Shown here piece by piece: positions 9,087-18,743 of a stretch of 64,000 nucleotides of DNA; the stretch's first letter is position 1; each line of letters begins with the position of its first letter. The DNA comes from a virus (lineage: Duplodnaviria > Caudoviricetes). The notes under the pieces are model-generated. The model was not told the DNA's origin. It worked only from the letters and a program-made list of their open reading frames with translations, and ran no database searches. The DNA is taken from the IMG/VR virus record IMGVR_UViG_3300023178_000006. One strand, written 5' to 3'. The translations under genes and the position numbers were made by a program.

Positions 9087-11633
9087 ATGACAATGACTTC
9101 ATTTTACACTTCCGTAGAACGCTACGGTAAGAATATTTTATGGCGAGGATATGAGAACGGTAAACGTTTCTCGTATCGTGTTCCATTTAAACCCACACTA
9201 TATCTTCATACACCAAAGAAAGGTGGTGACTTCAAGTCGTTGATTGGTGGTAAAAGTCTACATCCTCAAAAGTTTGGTGAAATGCGTGAAGCTAAAAACT
9301 TTATTGAAGAGTATAAAGGTGTCGCTGGTTTCGAAGTATTTGGTTCAACAAACTTCGTTACACAATTCATTCAAGAACATTACCCAGAAGAAGTAAGATT
9401 TAATATTGCTGATGTGAACATCGTATCTTTCGATATTGAGGTTGACATTCGTGATGGATTCGCAGATATTGAACAAGCAAATAATGAAATTACTTCTATC
9501 GCATATAAATCATCAAAGTCTAAAAAGTACTTCCTACTTGGTCGTAAAGATTATGATAAAACAAAAACGATAACTGGTATTGACCCAGATAATATCGTAT
9601 TCGCAAAATTCGATACTGAAGCTCAATTGCTCCAAGGATTTATTAAACTATGGACTGCTGACTATCCAGATATTGTAACCGGTTGGAACGTAGAATACTT
9701 TGATATACAATACATCGTAACACGTATTATAAGACTACTTGGTGAAGAATCCGCAAAGAAACTTTCTCCTTGGAAATCGATTGACCAAAAACGTAGAGAG
9801 GTATTCGGTAAAGTTCAAGCAACATACAAAATTTCTGGTATGTCTGTTATTGACTATATGGATGCGTTTAAAAAGTTTGGTTATAAGTATGGTCCACAAG
9901 AATCATATAAACTTGACCACATCGCTCATGTTATTCTTGGTGAAAAGAAACTTGATTATTCTGAATACGGTTCATTGACTGCTTTATATGACGAAAACCC
10001 ACAACTCTATCTCGACTATAACTTAAAAGATACACACCTCATTCAAAGAATGGAAGAAGAAACATCTCTTCTCGCGTTGGTAATGACTGTTGCTTATGGT
10101 GGTGGTGTAAACTATAATGATGCATTTGGTACTGTGGGTATTTGGGAATCTACAATTTATCGTAGACTCATTGCTGACAAAGTTGTTCCTCCAGTTAAAG
10201 ATTCGCCTGGTCAACGTATGGGTGAACTCGTTGGTGGTTACGTAAAAGACCCAAAACCAGGAATGTATCCTTGGGTTGTATCATTTGACTTAAACTCTCT
10301 GTATCCTCATTTAATGTTGCAATACAATATGTCACCTGAAACATATCTTCCTAATGAACGTGAAGTTGTAACACAAGACATGGTACTCAATAGTGAGTTT
10401 AAAAATACGAATACAAATATGTCGGTTGCTGCAAATGGTGTTTGTTTTAGAAACGATGAAGTTGGTATTATTCCAAGTATCATTGACGAATACTATAATA
10501 ATCGTTCTGTGATTAAGAAACAAATGATTGCAGTTGAACAACAATTCGAAGTTGAAACTGACCCTGTTGAAAAGAAAAGACTGAAACGAGAAATGAATCA
10601 ACTTCATAATTCTCAAATGTCAATCAAAATTGCTATGAACTCTCTTTATGGTGCGACAGCAAATATCTACTTCTTATACTATATTAACGAAATGGCTGAA
10701 GCAATCACTACATCTGGTCAGTTAAGTATTCGATATGCTCAAAAATCTGTAAATGATTATCTCAACAAGATACTCAACACGAAAGATAAAGATTATATCG
10801 TATACATTGATACTGATTCAATTTACGTAAACTTTGGTCCATTCATCAAAGAAGTATTCGGTACAGTAGACATTGACCGTAAGCAAGGTGAAGAATTCTT
10901 AGATAAAGTATGTTCTACTAAAATCGAACAAATCATCGAACAAGGATATGAAAAACTTGCAAATGACATGGGTGCATATCGAAACGCGATGGTTATGAAA
11001 CGTGAAAAGATTACTGACCGTTCAATCTTTATCGCAAAGAAAAGATATATCCTTAATGCTTTGAATAGTGAAGGTGTTCACTATGAAGAACCAAAAGTTT
11101 CTGTTACTGGTTTAGAATCAGTTCGCTCATCGACACCTGAAATATGTCGTGAAAAGATGAAACAAATCTTTAAGGTTATCTTGTCTGGTGATGAAACAGA
11201 AACACAACAATTTATTGCGAAGTTCCGTGATGAATTTCGTAGCTTACCTCCCGAAGATATTGCTAAAACTTCGGGCACAGACAATATCAATAAATACATG
11301 AGTAAGGAAACTCTATATAGAAAAGGATGTCCAATGCATGTTCGTGGTTGTATTCTCTACAATCACTTCCTTACACAGAAAAAACTCGATAAGAAATACG
11401 AAAAGGTTCAATCAGGTGACAAGATAAAATTCATTTATCTTAAAGTGCCTAATCCTATTCGTGAAAATATGATATCGTTCCCCGGTGTACTTCCTAAAGA
11501 ATTAGGACTCGACAAGTATATTGATTATGATACTCAATTCGATAAAGTGTTCTTAGGACCAGTCGAAAACATTATTGAACCTCTGGGTTGGAAATCCGAA
11601 AAAGTAAATACAATTGAGGACTTTTTTACATGA
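9087..11633 (+). CDS. gp43: Family B DNA polymerase
   Basis: Exonuclease DIEV and YNLKD; polymerase SFDLNSLYP, K..MNSLYG, YIDTDS and KKRY. Confidence 0.96.
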   Translation: MTMTSFYTSVERYGKNILWRGYENGKRFSYRVPFKPTLYLHTPKKGGDFKSLIGGKSLHPQKFGEMREAKNFIEEYKGVAGFEVFGSTNFVTQFIQEHYPEEVRFNIADVNIVSFDIEVDIRDGFADIEQANNEITSIAYKSSKSKKYFLLGRKDYDKTKTITGIDPDNIVFAKFDTEAQLLQGFIKLWTADYPDIVTGWNVEYFDIQYIVTRIIRLLGEESAKKLSPWKSIDQKRREVFGKVQATYKISGMSVIDYMDAFKKFGYKYGPQESYKLDHIAHVILGEKKLDYSEYGSLTALYDENPQLYLDYNLKDTHLIQRMEEETSLLALVMTVAYGGGVNYNDAFGTVGIWESTIYRRLIADKVVPPVKDSPGQRMGELVGGYVKDPKPGMYPWVVSFDLNSLYPHLMLQYNMSPETYLPNEREVVTQDMVLNSEFKNTNTNMSVAANGVCFRNDEVGIIPSIIDEYYNNRSVIKKQMIAVEQQFEVETDPVEKKRLKREMNQLHNSQMSIKIAMNSLYGATANIYFLYYINEMAEAITTSGQLSIRYAQKSVNDYLNKILNTKDKDYIVYIDTDSIYVNFGPFIKEVFGTVDIDRKQGEEFLDKVCSTKIEQIIEQGYEKLANDMGAYRNAMVMKREKITDRSIFIAKKRYILNALNSEGVHYEEPKVSVTGLESVRSSTPEICREKMKQIFKVILSGDETETQQFIAKFRDEFRSLPPEDIAKTSGTDNINKYMSKETLYRKGCPMHVRGCILYNHFLTQKKLDKKYEKVQSGDKIKFIYLKVPNPIRENMISFPGVLPKELGLDKYIDYDTQFDKVFLGPVENIIEPLGWKSEKVNTIEDFFT

Positions 11634-12951: not shown

Positions 12952-13259
12952 TGAAATATTTAATTGTAATTGCAGCATTACTTATCTCTAATACAGCTAA
13001 TGCTGAAGATAGATTTGCACCTATTCGTTCAACAATGAATACTTGTGCAGCTTGCCACGGACCTCAGGGTCAAGGTGGAATCGGTCCTAAATTACAAGGA
13101 CAATCTGCTGATGAAATCATTTCAAAATTATTAGCATATAAAAATAAAGAAGTTGTAGGACCACAATCTGCAATGATGTGGCCGACAGCAGGTATGCTAT
13201 CTGAAGGTGATATTGGTATGATTGGTGTTTATATTGCACAAGGATATCCAAATGAGTAG
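12951..13259 (+). CDS. Class I monoheme cytochrome c (c553/c4-like) with signal peptide
   Basis: Hydrophobic leader ending in ANA, CAACH heme motif, P.L.GQ...I...L..YK, and distal AMM methionine. Confidence 0.82.
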   Translation: MKYLIVIAALLISNTANAEDRFAPIRSTMNTCAACHGPQGQGGIGPKLQGQSADEIISKLLAYKNKEVVGPQSAMMWPTAGMLSEGDIGMIGVYIAQGYPNE

Positions 13260-13683
13260 AAACTGGGTAGAAGACATTCACAACATGCAAACGAAATATA
13301 AAACTCGTGAATGGGTTTGGGATAATCGTGATGATGTTGAGAAGCTTAAAAAGTTTTTAGAATTTAGAATTAATTTTCTTGAGGAAGAACTAACTGAAAC
13401 GAAGAAAGCGTTTAAGGAAGGAGACCCTGAAGAAATAGTCGATGGATTAATCGACCTATGTGTTGTTGCCATAGGAACACTTGATGCTTATGGCGTTAAT
13501 CCACATGAAGCATGGGATAGAGTTCTCAATGCTAATATGGCAAAAGAAGTTGGTGTGAAAGAATCTAGACCTAATCCCTTAGGTGTTCCAGATTTAGTAA
13601 AACCTGAAGGTTGGGAAGCTCCTAATCACGAAGGTAACCACGGCCTCTTCTTAAAGAATTTATTTAATGGGAGAATAGAATGA
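13252..13683 (+). CDS. All-alpha NTP pyrophosphohydrolase (MazG/PRA-PH-like)
   Basis: LEEELTE...EEIVDGLIDL and NMAK...KP.GW; start reassigned to ATG 13252. Confidence 0.75.
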   Translation: MSRNWVEDIHNMQTKYKTREWVWDNRDDVEKLKKFLEFRINFLEEELTETKKAFKEGDPEEIVDGLIDLCVVAIGTLDAYGVNPHEAWDRVLNANMAKEVGVKESRPNPLGVPDLVKPEGWEAPNHEGNHGLFLKNLFNGRIE

Positions 13684-13904
13684 AAGAGCCAATCGTAAAC
13701 GCTCTAGTAGCGAAATATAAAGCTCAAATTGCAGAGCATAAAGTAAATATTGATGTATTGTTAGAAAAACAAGTGGGTGTCGCAGAACATCCTGGTATTA
13801 TCGAAACAATCGATTTAGAAGTTACAAAACTTGCTGAAGCTGAAGATAAACTTTACATCGTTGAAAACAATTTCGTTATTAAACCACAACCAAGACTTCC
13901 GTAA
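13680..13904 (+). CDS. Hypothetical protein
   Basis: 74-aa ORF with ATGA overlap. Confidence 0.6.
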   Translation: MKEPIVNALVAKYKAQIAEHKVNIDVLLEKQVGVAEHPGIIETIDLEVTKLAEAEDKLYIVENNFVIKPQPRLP

Positions 13905-13931
13905 AAAGTTGCACTTTTTTCACAAAAACAG

Positions 13932-13960
13932 TTGACATTTACGAAAAACTATAGTATAAT
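13932..13960 (+). promoter_or_regulatory. Sigma70-type early promoter
   Basis: TTGACA 13932-13937, N17, TATAAT 13955-13960; predicted start near 13967. Confidence 0.87.
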
Positions 13961-13966
13961 ATACTA

Positions 13967-14195
13967 GATTGTTGGGAATAGGCTATGACGGCGAGACGAA
14001 AGTTTAGGACCCACGACGGTAACGAACCAACAATCACCTTGGTAGAGGGAATACTGCTCCTAATATGGAACCCCTGAAACACCAACAGATATACCAAGCG
14101 ACGAAAGTTTCGAGGTATATCAACCGAGTGAAAGTAAGGAACACCAAAACGGACAACCTCTGCCGAGACCTATATGTGACCTAGTTGATGGTCAT
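13967..14195 (+). ncRNA. Candidate structured non-coding RNA or leader of unknown class
   Basis: About 46% GC in an AT-rich genome. Stems: 13967-13975/14027-14035, 14038-14048/14157-14167, 14088-14095/14114-14121 and 14177-14181/14190-14194. Several GNRA loops. Confidence 0.6.
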
Positions 14196-14228
14196 TGAAC
14201 TAACTTATAAATCGGAGTAGAAACGATT

Positions 14229-15572
14229 ATGGAATATAACGTAAAAGTAATGTCTGCGCAAGAGATTGTAGACCTTCTTAATACGGGAAAATTAAATCCC
14301 GACCCAATTGGCCAGAGACCTCCCGTCTCTTCCGGCGTAAAAAAATCAATCGCAATTATCAAAGGACTCATGTCCGGTTATGGTGCTGGAATGTTAACCA
14401 TTCGAGACATTCGCAATGATGTCGAAGCACAAAAGATTTATGGTTGTGATTATCTTGTAATTGATGGCGGACACCGCTGTCGAGCTCTTAAAGCTTACTA
14501 TACTGGAAAGATTCTCATCGATGGTGAGAAATACATTGATTCAGATTTTAATCTGAGTGATGTCGATATACCAGTTGACGTAAGAGTATGTACTTCTTCT
14601 GAAGCTTCACGTCTATTTAGAAATATCAACACGACAACACCAACCAACTTTATGGAAATGGTAATGTCTGATGAAGAATCTAAAGTGTGTGAGTATATAC
14701 GTAGAAAAACTTCGTATGTACGCGAGTATTCTAATGAACCACATCCGTTGTTCGAAAAACAAATTAAACCTGATGGTAAAGTTGTTGTGCCAAACTGGGT
14801 TGATGACCAACCCAACCCAAGACGTAGATGGGACGAGTTTGTTGCTATCGCAATAATCCGTTCTATGGGTAAAGGTTTAGTTGATGCTGGTCAAACAGAA
14901 ATCGAAACACTATGTCGTGAAGATAATGAGATTCCTAAAACTGTACAATCAAGAGTAGACGATTTCTTAGACGCTGCTTTAAAATTACGTGTATTCCGTA
15001 AGTTTGGTTTAAATGACGCAATCTTCTCGGCTTTTTCTGTGTATTACTTTGGATTGGTTGAACAATTCGATAAGTTTAAAATTGATAATGATGAGGACTT
15101 CTTTAAGTTCTTTATGAAAACTTATACACTACTTACTGGCAAAAATGATACGTCTCTCGAAAAAGAAACGATTGAATACAATGATACCACCTTCTTTGTT
15201 AAGGAATTTGTCAGAAAGTATCGAAGACACTCAGCTGCAGGTAATGCACAGAAACTTGTATATAAACAGTTTACAATTCACGGAAACTGTGATATAATAC
15301 CAGATGGAATTACAGTTTTAGATACGAAACGTTCTCTAGGTAAACTCGATAGAGAAGAAGCATTAGCAGCACAAGGTTATGTTTGTGCAATTGATGGAAA
15401 ACCTTTAGAACTTGACGATGCCGTATTTGGACATGATACTCCTTGGTCACAAGGTGGTAAGAGTGTAATTGAGAATGGTGCGATGGTAAGAAGCGAACAT
15501 AACAGAAACATGGGAACTCTTACTCTCGATGAATATAAAATGATTTTAACTATGAGGGAAACTAATGCCTAA
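14229..15572 (+). CDS. DUF262/ParB-like domain plus C-terminal HNH nuclease (GmrSD-like architecture)
   Basis: VIDGGHR (cf. DUF262 DGQQR), F.NINT, and C-terminal GHDTPWSQGG...N...EHN HNH motif. Confidence 0.65.
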   Translation: MEYNVKVMSAQEIVDLLNTGKLNPDPIGQRPPVSSGVKKSIAIIKGLMSGYGAGMLTIRDIRNDVEAQKIYGCDYLVIDGGHRCRALKAYYTGKILIDGEKYIDSDFNLSDVDIPVDVRVCTSSEASRLFRNINTTTPTNFMEMVMSDEESKVCEYIRRKTSYVREYSNEPHPLFEKQIKPDGKVVVPNWVDDQPNPRRRWDEFVAIAIIRSMGKGLVDAGQTEIETLCREDNEIPKTVQSRVDDFLDAALKLRVFRKFGLNDAIFSAFSVYYFGLVEQFDKFKIDNDEDFFKFFMKTYTLLTGKNDTSLEKETIEYNDTTFFVKEFVRKYRRHSAAGNAQKLVYKQFTIHGNCDIIPDGITVLDTKRSLGKLDREEALAAQGYVCAIDGKPLELDDAVFGHDTPWSQGGKSVIENGAMVRSEHNRNMGTLTLDEYKMILTMRETNA

Positions 15573-15909
15573 AAATAATAACCCCGAAGCGGTCAACGTT
15601 CTTCAAGAATGTATCGACCTTCAGTTGAAAAAATCTAGGGATTATCAGAATCCTAATTCAACTGTACAACAAGCACAATACTATCCTAATGGTATTGTAA
15701 CTATTCACGATATCATGCATGCAAAAATGCTACGTATGAAATCGGTTATGGAAGCTATGCAAAGTGATGATTATAATCCAAACTTCGAATCTCTTGAAGA
15801 TTCAGCAAAAGATTTAATTAACTATGCGAGTTTCTTTGTTTCATTTTGTCGTGGTAAAATACCAGGCCAAGATTCCCGCAATGATGCATTTAATAAGAGG
15901 ACTAAATAA
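15565..15909 (+). CDS. Nucleotide-modification-associated domain protein (Nmad1/DUF1599-like)
   Basis: KKSRDY...K..R....ESLEDSAKDLINYA pattern. Confidence 0.55.
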   Translation: MPKNNNPEAVNVLQECIDLQLKKSRDYQNPNSTVQQAQYYPNGIVTIHDIMHAKMLRMKSVMEAMQSDDYNPNFESLEDSAKDLINYASFFVSFCRGKIPGQDSRNDAFNKRTK

Positions 15910-16163
15910 TGAGTAATGTGATTATACCTTCAAGTGATGAAGATAAGAAAAGAATTAAAGGTGCTATGGAAGAAATGAGTAATTCATTTACTAGAGTAGA
16001 AGCCGAACGTGATTTTCAAAAAGAAGCAATTAATGCCTTAGCTGACGATGTAGATATTCCTAAAAATATTCTACGTAAAATGGCTAGGATTTATCATAAA
16101 CAAAATCTACCAGCAGTTGTAGCTGAACTAGATGATATTGAAACACTATTGGAAACAATTTAA
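15909..16163 (+). CDS. Small dsDNA-binding protein (T4 DsbA/GapR-like)
   Basis: 84 aa, helical, ending ..LRKMARIYHKQN..., similar to remembered DsbA homologues. Confidence 0.5.
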   Translation: MSNVIIPSSDEDKKRIKGAMEEMSNSFTRVEAERDFQKEAINALADDVDIPKNILRKMARIYHKQNLPAVVAELDDIETLLETI

Positions 16164-16834
16164 TGTTAAGAGTTAGAGATATTCGTAATCAAATCGTAAC
16201 TGATTTTCTTCAAGGTGATTGGGTTATTGATAGAACAGGTGCTAAGACTGTTGAAGTCATTGGTGCCACATTTATTGCTGATGAAGATTATGTTATTCGT
16301 AAACCAGCTTATGAATACATCAAACGTGAATTGCGTTGGTATGAAATGCAATCACTGTATGTTGATGACATCCCTGGTGAAACTCCACAAATTTGGAAAG
16401 ACATCTCATCTGAAGAAGGTAAGATTAATTCAAACTATGGTTGGTGTATCTATTCTGATGAGAATGGTAATCAATACCAAAAAGTAAAACAAGAATTAAA
16501 GTCTAATCCAAACTCAAGACGTGCGACAATGATTTATAATCGACCAAGCATGCATACTGATTTTAACAAAAATGGTATGAACGATTTTATGTGTACTTAT
16601 GCTAATACGTTCTATATCAGAAATAATAGATTAGTTTCGCATTATATTATGCGTTCAAACGATGCAGTCTTTGGTTATAATAATGATTATGCTTGGGCAA
16701 AACACGTTCAAGAAAGACTTGCAAATGACTTAGGTGTTGAAGTTGGTGAATTAATTTGGACCGCTTCTAACTTTCACGTATACGAAAGACACTTTAATTT
16801 TATACAGGAATATATTGATGGCAATAAAGGTTGA
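16163..16834 (+). CDS. gp42: dCMP hydroxymethylase-type thymidylate-synthase-family enzyme (T4 gp42-like)
   Basis: Co-linear with T4 gp42 as recalled: D.TG.KT.E.IGA.F.ADE, DIPGETP.IW, INSNYGW, SRR..MIY.RPSM, DFMCT, MRSND.VFG..NDYAW (cytosine-specifying Asp) and HVY.RHF. Confidence 0.88.
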   Translation: MLRVRDIRNQIVTDFLQGDWVIDRTGAKTVEVIGATFIADEDYVIRKPAYEYIKRELRWYEMQSLYVDDIPGETPQIWKDISSEEGKINSNYGWCIYSDENGNQYQKVKQELKSNPNSRRATMIYNRPSMHTDFNKNGMNDFMCTYANTFYIRNNRLVSHYIMRSNDAVFGYNNDYAWAKHVQERLANDLGVEVGELIWTASNFHVYERHFNFIQEYIDGNKG

Positions 16835-17036
16835 AGTTACAGATGAACAATGTGATGAAATTGTGGTTGAAAGTCTTAATAATGCAATTGAACATTTCGA
16901 AGAAGCGTTCGAAGACAGAGCAAATGACGATGGTGGTTTAAACTACGCTCATTTCTCAACTAACATTCAAGAAGATTTAGCTGAAATACAAAAACACATT
17001 GAAGCATTTAAAACAGTGAAAAGTTATTATGTATAA
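16815..17036 (+). CDS. Hypothetical acidic protein
   Basis: 73-aa ORF overlapping both neighbours. Confidence 0.55.
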   Translation: MMAIKVEVTDEQCDEIVVESLNNAIEHFEEAFEDRANDDGGLNYAHFSTNIQEDLAEIQKHIEAFKTVKSYYV

Positions 17037-17490
17037 ATGGGATTCAAGATTCCTTAATATAGCGAGAGAAATCTCAACTTGGAGTAAAGACCCATCTAAA
17101 AAAATTGGTGCAGTATTCGTATCTGATGAACGTAGAATATTAGCAACTGGTTATAATGGGTTTCCTCAAGGTATTGGAGATAGTGAAGATAGGTATTTAG
17201 ATAGAGATATCAAATATGCATATGTAGTACATGCTGAGAAGAACGCAATATATAATGCTACATATCACGGAATCACTTTAAAAGATTCAACGCTATATGT
17301 ATGGGGATTGCCCGTTTGTAGTGAATGCGCTAAAGGTGTTATTCAAGTAGGAACAAAACGAGTTGTAATGCCCTCAATGGATTCTATGGGATTTGTCGAT
17401 GAGACAAGAGAAAAGTGGATTCATTCTTGGGAATTAAGTCATTCGTTATTTAGAGAAGCATTAATTGATGTTGATTTTGTTGACATTTAG
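17029..17490 (+). CDS. cd: dCMP deaminase
   Basis: S.DP..K.GA, TGYNG, HAEKNAI and PVCSEC. Confidence 0.9.
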   Translation: MYKWDSRFLNIAREISTWSKDPSKKIGAVFVSDERRILATGYNGFPQGIGDSEDRYLDRDIKYAYVVHAEKNAIYNATYHGITLKDSTLYVWGLPVCSECAKGVIQVGTKRVVMPSMDSMGFVDETREKWIHSWELSHSLFREALIDVDFVDI

Positions 17491-17508
17491 ATAAAAGTAT
17501 GGTATAAT
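17480..17508 (+). promoter_or_regulatory. Sigma70-type early promoter for the glycosyltransferase/methyltransferase genes
   Basis: TTGACA 17480-17485, N17, TATAAT 17503-17508. Confidence 0.82.
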
Positions 17509-17510
17509 AT

Positions 17511-18743
17511 ATGGGTATGAAAAAATCAGTTTTAGTTATTGATAATCTCACAGAAACTTTCGATGGTTCTGTAGTACGTTCTGGACTTCAAAAGAGTTCT
17601 AAACTTGATGCCAGAGCCTTCAGCAAATTAGGTTATCAAACAACTTATATGTATTGTGGGAGAGTAGTAGACCCAGGATATGAATACATGCACTATGGTG
17701 TAAACTCCCTTGGTGCAAAAGACCAAGCAATGAAAGAAGGTAAGAATCCTTCTCGTGTTAGTAGACACTATATTAAAAGATATTTAGAAAGTGTTAAGGA
17801 TATAATTGAAGACCACGATTATATCATCGCTCATTGTCATAGTGTTTCTATGATTACTACACTCAATCAACTCGTCAAGAATAAAAGAATTATGTTTATT
17901 ATTCATGATGTTATTGATTTAATGTGGTGTTATGGATTCAGTGATGTTATTCGTAGAATGAGAAAGACAGATAGGAATATGTGTTATATTGCTACGAACT
18001 CAAACTACTCAATTCAAAAGATGAATGACATTCATGAGCGTGCCATTAAAGCTGGTTATGAAGATATTCCATTAAGAGGTGATGATGCTTTTGATGGATT
18101 CATCGAACACTTTGTTTGGACTGACGAAAAAGTTACATCTGAAGATATTGAACAAGTTGAGAATAAGTCAGCAATCATAGGAAGATACTCTACAGATAAG
18201 TTCCACCACAAAGTATACGGATATAATAATCCACAAAACACGATTGTTCATTATGGTGTACGTGACCCAAGACGAGATAAGACTGGAAGATACTTTGAAA
18301 ATCTTCAAAAGAAAGCAAATGCTTATATGGAAAATCTTCCAGATGAAGAATTATTCGAAGCAATTAAAACATCTCAAAGTATTATACTACCTTGTTTTCA
18401 TGAGGGATTTGGTTATACCGCATTTGAAGCTGGAATCTATGGAGTAGTTCCAGTTATTTTAGTTAAACAATTAGACCACACACAACAAATGATACACGCA
18501 ACCTCAGAATATCTTTTACGTGCTAATGTTAAACACTATACCGCAGACTTCAACGATGCAGATGACATATATAAAGCTATAGACGAAAGTATTAAGGTGA
18601 CTCCTGAAGATAGGAGAAACATAAGCCGTAATCTTTTAAAATATTTTACTGTGACTAAATACGTCGAAGAAAGAATTTCACTATTAGATGGAATGGAAGA
18701 ACGTATTTCTAGTGAGGTTGACCTTGAGGATTTTTTTGTATGA
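17511..18743 (+). CDS. GT-B (GT4-like) glycosyltransferase, candidate DNA hmC glycosyltransferase
   Basis: PCFHEGFGYTAFEAG contains the E-x7-E motif of retaining GT-B enzymes; lies next to gp42. Confidence 0.72.
   Translation: MGMKKSVLVIDNLTETFDGSVVRSGLQKSSKLDARAFSKLGYQTTYMYCGRVVDPGYEYMHYGVNSLGAKDQAMKEGKNPSRVSRHYIKRYLESVKDIIEDHDYIIAHCHSVSMITTLNQLVKNKRIMFIIHDVIDLMWCYGFSDVIRRMRKTDRNMCYIATNSNYSIQKMNDIHERAIKAGYEDIPLRGDDAFDGFIEHFVWTDEKVTSEDIEQVENKSAIIGRYSTDKFHHKVYGYNNPQNTIVHYGVRDPRRDKTGRYFENLQKKANAYMENLPDEELFEAIKTSQSIILPCFHEGFGYTAFEAGIYGVVPVILVKQLDHTQQMIHATSEYLLRANVKHYTADFNDADDIYKAIDESIKVTPEDRRNISRNLLKYFTVTKYVEERISLLDGMEERISSEVDLEDFFV

Follow-up and report, generated by a model that had tools for sequence, protein, structure and literature searches.

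What occupies the long gene-free space between a perfect promoter and a predicted nuclease gene in an uncultured phage, and does it serve that nuclease? The locus lies in a 64,000-nucleotide stretch of DNA (IMG/VR record IMGVR_UViG_3300023178_000006; here called the window) from an uncultured T4-like phage. Its family B DNA polymerase (positions 9087 to 11633) is 45% identical to gp43 of the cyanophages S-RIM12 and Syn33, and the closest of the records searched is a 12-kb IMG/VR fragment, identical in sequence, from a salt marsh. On the plus strand, a sigma70-type promoter that matches the consensus at 12 of 12 positions (TTGACA-17-TATAAT, 13932 to 13960; predicted transcription start, approximately 13967) is followed by 268 gene-free nucleotides, up to the start codon of a gene for a 447-amino-acid protein. 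An earlier note, made from the letters alone, had placed a structured RNA in this space and proposed that it is a partner or leader of the downstream protein.

A structured RNA behind a consensus promoter

Near-perfect TTGACA-N17-TATAAT promoters number 13 in the window, versus 1.6 expected by chance. Because the remaining 12 have short leaders with little predicted structure, the structured start is special to the promoter at 13932 to 13960, and we rejected the idea that such a start is a general feature of early leaders. A near-consensus promoter (TTTACA-17-TGnTATAAT, 15270 to 15298) also lies inside the 3' part of the downstream gene and faces the genes that follow.

The GC content over 13967 to 14195 is 46.3%, matching the earlier estimate of about 46%, versus 35.5% in the whole window. 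The minimum free energy fold of 13967 to 14228 reaches -66.8 kcal/mol (z = -3.3), and none of 200 shuffles was as stable; the fold goes beyond chance because both closing stems covary in homologues. The helices proposed from the letters were borne out: a 9-bp stem (GATTGTTGG/CCAACAATC, 13967 to 13975 with 14027 to 14035), an 11-bp stem with two G-U pairs (CTTGGTAGAGG/CCTCTGCCGAG, 14038 to 14048 with 14157 to 14167), an 8-bp arm (GATATACC/GGTATATC, 14088 to 14095 with 14114 to 14121), and a final hairpin, at 14176 to 14195. The first of these stems, P1 of domain 1, begins 7 nt past the -10 element of the perfect promoter, and the RNA starts at or within a few bases of it, as had been predicted. 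The final hairpin (6 bp, plus strand) stands between the modules and the ribosome-binding site and is seen in the folds with no U-tract behind it; hairpins of other sequence occupy its position in two relatives (L003 and L007). The terminator scan did not call this hairpin and found no terminator between the RNA and the downstream gene in the window.

In keeping with the view of a discrete, promoter-proximal structured RNA outside the known families, the RNA is without a match in any Rfam family. At gathering thresholds, a search of the whole window against Rfam 15 came back empty; with E values of up to 10 allowed for 13800 to 14400, just two chance matches appeared, neither of them in the RNA body; ten related loci yielded tRNAs only. 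We conclude that the stretch is a real folded noncoding RNA of two modules and a new phage RNA family.

Type A modules combine covarying stems with invariant loops

Domain 1 of the RNA, the type A module (13967 to 14035, plus strand), scores 70.6 bits (E = 4e-16) with covariance model R1 and is its single occurrence in the window, where the next-best match reaches 12 bits. Its helices are P1 (13967 to 13975/14027 to 14035), P2 (13982 to 13984/14018 to 14020), and a variable P3 hairpin (13990 to 14012), and its internal loops, GAAUAG/AACGAA and AUGAC/ACGAC, are invariant. Pattern scans of IMG/VR and JGI metagenomes, filtered for the closing stem, provided 14 distinct copies. Their consensus reads, 5' to 3', P1 (9 to 15 bp), GAAUWG, P2 (GCY), AHGRC, variable P3, AYGAC, P2' (GGU), AACGAA, and P1', with GAAUWG opposite AACGAA in a 6-by-6 internal loop and AHGRC opposite AYGAC in a two-fold symmetric 5-by-5 loop.

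Compensatory changes occur at all 11 P1 pairs. In total, 92.5% of P1 cells are paired, versus 28 to 44% when the partner column is slid by 1 to 3, and the observed covariation score was reached by none of 500 shuffles. P3 also covaries, with GCUC/GAGC in some copies replaced by GAGC/GCUC in another, P2 shows no variation, and RNAalifold independently recovers all three helices. The G-U pairs, including an invariant one in P2, fit only the plus strand, which is the strand transcribed from the promoter. Approximately 25 loop bases are invariant (23 invariant alignment columns among the 14 distinct copies). Since a scan anchored on the 3' half alone returned no copies without the 5' half and no new variants, the conservation of the 5' half is not an artifact of the search pattern; the family is small, and a recent spread among phages could account for part of the loop invariance. 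Readings of the GAAUAG/AACGAA loop as a K-turn or a sarcin-ricin motif were tried by hand and set aside, as neither appears to fit the P1 register fixed by covariation.

The 30-codon upstream open reading frame at 13985 to 14077, which the earlier note had named as a competing explanation, does not account for the region, because its ATG is missing from most homologues. Only the copies in the window, L057, and L039 have it, and the other 11 carry ACG or AAG at the AHG triplet (alignment columns 25 to 27). The length of P3 varies by non-multiples of three, which likewise argues against a conserved frame.

Type B modules and a common platform

Domain 2, the type B module (14038 to 14167, plus strand), is closed by its own P1 (14038 to 14048 with 14157 to 14167) around the core GAAUACUG...GUGAAAGUAAGGAACACC...ACGGACAA. 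A scan with a 17-nt string from this domain found stand-alone type B copies in five near-identical contigs (L258, L259, L260, L264, and L269), directly after a consensus promoter and 15 nt ahead of a phrog_27048 gene, as well as a copy in L057, where the order is promoter, B, A, U-tract, and bS21 gene, the reverse of the A-then-B order of the window. The cores of L259 and L057 are almost identical, and the closing stems are unrelated (CUUGGUAGAGG/CCUCUGCCGAG in the window, GAAUUGGUGG/CCACCAUUUC in L259, and AUAUAUCGGUAG/CUAACGAUAUAU in L057); this covariation was read directly from the sequences rather than counted, and MAFFT misaligns the type B 3' strand.

Both types have P1, GAAUA on the 5' side, and the 3' strand RGG(U)AACGA(A), in which GG(N) pairs with a short P2; to judge from these shared elements, they appear to be a single platform that varies in its distal part. 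The earlier reading of the two domains as a diverged tandem module therefore holds for two related modules on a common basal platform but not for the GAC-GAAA-GUUU hairpin that had been counted as part of the likeness. The string GACGAAAGTTT is present twice, at 13995 and 14100, and the second hairpin is not a truly shared feature because it falls within a lineage-specific insertion. This optional arm of 40 nt (14088 to 14127, plus strand) consists of an 8-bp stem (14088 to 14095/14114 to 14121) capped by a GAC-GAAA-GUU hairpin. It is missing from the type B copies of L259 and L057; the 6 nt TACTGC stand in its place in the L259 core and in a strain variant from the seawater metatranscriptome run X20.

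Several loci carry further structural features beside the modules. In L057 (1103 to 1279), the P1 strands of type B and type A have nearly the same sequence, and an alternative fold joining the two modules is possible because the type B 3' strand and the type A 5' strand form a perfect palindrome (CGATATAT-G-ATATATCG). A possible third module, with a GAAUA start as in types A and B, lies directly 3' of type A at L126:499-547, L013:14317-14365, L066:1407-1455, and on the minus strand of L028, and is not present in the otherwise similar L140; it runs from stem AUCUGGU through GAAUAUACCG... and ...GACGUGAAA to stem ACCAGAU. The approximately 200 nt between type A and a phrog_27048 gene in L021 (5190 to 5390; also in L151 and L012) hold an 11-bp stem (GAGUGACACGG/CCGUGUCACUC) inside an outer stem and look like another structured RNA.

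Distribution among phages

To date, every type A or type B copy comes from an uncultured T4-like phage of marine or estuarine origin, jumbo phages among them. Two complete jumbo phage genomes (221 kb and 194 kb) contain a single type A copy each, as do three partial records. Searches of 50,697 GenBank phage records (megablast and tblastn with the locus and the nuclease gene; blastn with three RNA variants) returned only promoter look-alikes and chance hits, and a scan of 185,579 prokaryote species genomes for the exact type A pattern yielded nothing but chance hits, none of them with P1. Four bacterial genomes gave no match to model R1, in a search that had no positive control.

Two ideas about cellular counterparts were dropped. 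Scores for similarity or complementarity of the RNA to the Escherichia coli rRNA operon (16S, 23S, 5S, and the Ile, Ala, and Asp tRNAs) all lay within the shuffled null, as regards both mimicry of this operon and an antisense role. A link to Y RNA/Ro or RtcB found no footing in the two complete type A genomes, which have no TROVE or RtcB gene.

A literature search found no description of the motif, with the candidate catalogue of Fremin et al. (2023; PMC10690425) compared at the level of its main text. According to that text, the catalogue comprises 8,495 covarying intergenic motifs of approximately 65 nt from IMG/VR, many of them upstream of genes or terminator bearing. The main text gives no function applicable to this RNA, and our motif may be among the 8,495 unnamed candidates.

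Expression and the downstream gene

In two salt-marsh metatranscriptome assemblies, the locus is covered by single contigs (13921 to 15193 at depth 19 and 13898 to 15473 at depth 16) whose neighbors have depths of 2 to 5. Contigs from a third RNA run break between 13945 and 13989, around the predicted start. Contig depth downstream of the promoter is 2.6 to 5.5 times the upstream depth in three of four RNA libraries. The contigs are consistent with transcripts that start at the promoter and continue across the RNA into the gene, with the reservation that neither RNA ends nor a single transcript can be proved from contigs and that such libraries lose small RNAs.

The gene at 14229 to 15572 (plus strand) encodes a 447-amino-acid protein with a DUF262 domain (ParB-like, IDGGHR) and a C-terminal HNH domain. 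Homologues carry PF03235, the C-terminal part contains the HNH-like motif GHDTPWSQGG...HNRN, and the PADLOC REase_II profile matches residues 368 to 424 weakly (E = 1e-5), which makes "nuclease" a reasonable reading of this predicted protein. A Shine-Dalgarno sequence (GGAG, 14214 to 14217) and the start codon at 14229 can be read at 14214 to 14231 on the plus strand, and AATCGGAGTAGAAACGAT in this ribosome-binding and start region is conserved in L003 to L007.

The cassette is flanked by MazG-like open reading frames (13222 to 13683 and 15565 to 15909) that match N-terminal (49 to 145) and C-terminal (170 to 257) positions of the phrog_18404 profile, respectively, and the segment comprising the phrog_1811 gene, the promoter, the RNA, and the DUF262-HNH gene may have been inserted between two halves or domains. 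In L003 to L006, the RNA-nuclease cassette has a different upstream neighbor than in the window. Within 13222 to 18743 of the window, the MazG-like pyrophosphatase genes, a thymidylate-synthase-like gene (16163 to 16834), and a glycosyltransferase gene (17511 to 18743) adjoin the DUF262-HNH gene, a neighborhood suggestive of a pathway for modified-base DNA whose nuclease would distinguish DNA by its modification.

The RNA and the nuclease occur apart

The arrangement of promoter, RNA, and nuclease gene had led the earlier note to suggest an RNA partner of the nuclease (antitoxin, scaffold, or guide) or a riboswitch-like leader for it. The same layout is found in L003 to L006, whose proteins are 74 to 76% identical to that of the window, and RNA and gene are apparently cotranscribed. 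Conservation upstream of nuclease homologues, which had been proposed as a check on the RNA itself, is also seen there: behind the same kind of promoter, these four loci have a shorter RNA that keeps the domain 1 core with a different closing stem. Dedicated partnership does not extend further, however. L007 (74% identity) has lost the type A core and has a 10-bp hairpin with a GAAUAGA loop behind its promoter (L007:2912-2948), the homologues in L008 to L010 (48 to 51% identity) have no such RNA, and the two complete type A genomes have no nuclease homologue. In addition, the RNA contains no direct repeats of 30 to 40 nt and no HEARO match, and the protein is not ToxN, IscB, or TnpB like. Because the two complete type A genomes lack the nuclease and distant nuclease homologues lack the RNA, and with other genes downstream of the module elsewhere, the RNA is not a dedicated partner of the DUF262-HNH nuclease, and a riboswitch-like leader reserved for that gene finds no support either; the RNA is apparently cotranscribed with the gene but not obligately tied to it. 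A type III-like antitoxin, a HEARO/omega RNA-like guide, or a scaffold for this protein is thus already largely refuted by distribution, and we regard any such role as very improbable.

Genomic contexts and possible functions

The modules always lie in sense orientation directly after a strong promoter, heading transcription units. The distance from the -10 element to the start of P1 is approximately 5 to 10 nt in 12 of 14 type A copies, and the same holds for both stand-alone or leading type B copies. Downstream of type A are the DUF262-HNH gene in the window and L003 to L006; tRNA genes or arrays in L013, L016, L023, L026, L028, L031, L039, and L140; a further structured stretch and then a phrog_27048 gene in L021; a bS21 gene in L057; and a second complete promoter in L031, L097, and L143. 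Type A lies inside or heads phage tRNA arrays in at least five lineages, and both complete jumbo phages have it within such arrays. Phage-encoded genes for the ribosomal protein bS21 stand directly beside modules in two lineages, downstream of B-then-A at L057:1324-1617 and upstream of the type B promoter at L259:6680-6931.

This range of contexts bears on whether the RNA could be a riboswitch-like aptamer, or a tandem pair of them, in which a metabolite or signaling nucleotide would bind the loops, stabilize P1, and switch downstream termination or translation. The rod-like hairpin with invariant internal loops and variable stems, the two-fold symmetry of the AHGRC/AYGAC loop, and the tandem arrangement of modules suit such a device, and type A has the covarying stems and invariant loop bases of a conserved aptamer that are general among riboswitches. 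Moreover, P1 doubles as a terminator stem in three lineages, and the window RNA lies among nucleotide-metabolism genes (MazG-like and thymidylate-synthase-like) and a glycosyltransferase gene. However, no common pathway is found downstream (tRNAs, bS21, phrog_27048, the HNH nuclease, or another promoter), no alternative antiterminator or antisequestor pairing is evident, and no Rfam riboswitch matches even at E = 10. The association with one pathway and the expression platform that generally mark riboswitches are absent from the modules, a U-tract being present in three lineages only, and we consider a riboswitch improbable.

A plainer role at the 5' end would be that of a mere stabilizer, whose stem shields the transcript from 5'-end-dependent decay, or of a processing signal or self-cleaving ribozyme, with the module marking or performing cleavage from the tRNAs or mRNA behind it. 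P1 begins at approximately transcript position +1 to +4, L007 has lost the core but still has a bare 10-bp hairpin at the 5' end, and the tRNA arrays that contain a module need processing. A stabilizer, however, would not need approximately 25 invariant loop bases, the RNA matches no known ribozyme family, and the contigs show no break between module and gene, which is weak evidence against processing. We think it quite unlikely that any of these roles explains the modules.

The main rival of the reading that we favor below is a cis-acting transcription elongation element, that is, a nut/put-like antiterminator or attenuator in which the nascent module would bind RNA polymerase or Nus-type factors, or in which P1 and a U-tract would form a regulated terminator. 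The sense-strand, promoter-proximal position of the modules at the head of transcription units agrees with such an element, as do the RNA contigs of the window, which continue into the gene. So do the terminator-like ends of L057, L093, and L151, where 6 or 7 T fall in the 9 nt after P1; these are only 3 of approximately 9 lineages, and neither the window nor the jumbo-phage copies have a U-tract there. A boxA-like sequence lies 2 to 67 nt downstream of type A in L039, L143, and the L031 group, against a background of 0.04 per kb. In L039, the module stands directly before it, at the boxB position, and in L031 and L143 the boxA-like leader follows less than 70 nt after the module, ahead of tRNA arrays. 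These boxA-like neighbors in three lineages point to a role in transcription elongation and against one in trans. Other observations fit a cis-acting element poorly. There is no boxA near the module in the window, L057, L093, or L021 (the window and nine others are without one), and a single copy serves a genome of 194 to 221 kb. L007 retains the gene and a bare hairpin without the core. In L031, L097, and L143, a complete second promoter intervenes between module and boxA, so that most transcripts of the operon would lack the module. An elongation element is a possibility that we take seriously without thinking it likely.

Apart from the modules, the boxA-like sequences at L031:690-720, L039:14175-14195, and L143 (approximately 905 to 925) (GCTCTTTGAAAATTT, GTTCTTTGAAATTG, and GCTCTTTGACAATTT, respectively) follow consensus promoters and head tRNA arrays, and a GGAAU-GAAA-AUUCC hairpin precedes the one in L031 at the place of boxB. 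The tRNA operons of jumbo T4-like phages may be transcribed with the help of rrn-type Nus antitermination.

A tentative model: an early RNA acting in trans

Our preferred, though tentative, explanation is a stable, early, factor-binding RNA that acts in trans and is here fused to an mRNA as its leader. The trans-acting reading best fits the 5'-terminal stem, the strongest promoter class, the single copy per genome, the terminator-like ends of some copies, and the shuffling of contexts. The modules are autonomous: downstream genes vary, the nuclease is missing from the two complete type A genomes, type B is alone in L258 to L269, and L057 has B then A.

A consensus early-type sigma70 promoter would drive two concatenated autonomous modules, A and then B. 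We infer that a conserved trans-factor would bind the invariant purine-rich internal loops, with a protein of the host or the phage as the most likely candidate and a small molecule as a less likely one. The module would then be a stable, abundant early RNA that serves as a decoy, a sponge, or a scaffold for a ribonucleoprotein. In the three relatives with a U-tract directly after P1, a free RNA of approximately 70 to 190 nt would be released; in the window, where the terminator is missing, the modules would be fused to the DUF262-HNH mRNA as a leader of 262 nt. A purely cis role is equally compatible with the window itself, because no terminator precedes the gene and the RNA contigs cross both.

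The compact, phage-specific RNA family pair is new, and its secondary structure is well supported. Structured RNAs with approximately 25 invariant bases and fully covarying stems are rarely functionless. With A alone, B alone, A then B, and B then A, the RNA is modular, and it shifts context in the manner of accessory and counterdefense genes. If they bind a host factor or a signaling molecule, an RNA-only device would be added to the means of phage takeover and antidefense, and if RNA polymerase is the target, they would be relevant to the long-standing question of early-terminator read-through in T4-type phages. In both cases, the module is a defined object of 70 nt with clear mutational targets. 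We venture, as a rather unlikely speculation, that types A and B, possibly with a third type, are RNA decoys or sponges of earliest infection whose loops capture a host factor or an immune signal as part of a counterdefense or takeover cassette, or else that they are the first put-like, RNA-only antiterminator of a T4-type phage.

Comparison with known systems

HEARO, the omega RNA of IscB (RF02033), is similarly a large structured RNA beside an HNH-containing protein. Our RNA differs in having no Rfam match even at E = 10, and the protein has a DUF262 N-terminal domain and no detected RuvC or IscB-type domain. In type III toxin-antitoxin systems, the antitoxin consists of tandem direct repeats of approximately 30 to 40 nt that are processed by the toxin, and phages carry antitoxin-like RNAs. 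The order of promoter, noncoding RNA, and possibly toxic nuclease recalls ToxI/ToxN and phage pseudo-ToxI. However, the domains of the window RNA measure 69 nt and 130 nt, each with its own closing stem and without direct repeats, and its only repeated 11-mer falls in the optional insertion. Furthermore, the protein is DUF262-HNH rather than a ToxN/AbiQ/CptN-type endoribonuclease, and RNA and protein occur apart.

The nut sites of rrn operons and lambda (boxB-boxA) and the put sites of HK022 give rise to structured sense-strand RNAs that lie shortly after strong promoters and act on the polymerase transcribing them. The modules share the promoter-proximal, sense-strand placement, and that of L039 stands at the boxB position before a boxA-like sequence; the put RNA was compared by its general description rather than by sequence. 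They differ from nut and put in that the window has no boxA, each genome has one module, and a second promoter often lies between module and boxA.

Phage T4 has two small non-tRNA RNAs, species 1 and 2 (rnaC and rnaD), in its tRNA cluster, and they are transcribed with it; to our knowledge, their function is still unassigned. Homology was rejected, as the best R1 match in T4 positions 66000 to 76000 (12 bits, E = 0.2) does not lie at rnaC or rnaD. The likeness is one of placement, with type A in or heading phage tRNA arrays in at least five lineages. Whereas the T4 RNAs stand at the end of their cluster and lack a separate promoter, type A comes with a consensus promoter and is also found away from tRNAs, as in the window.
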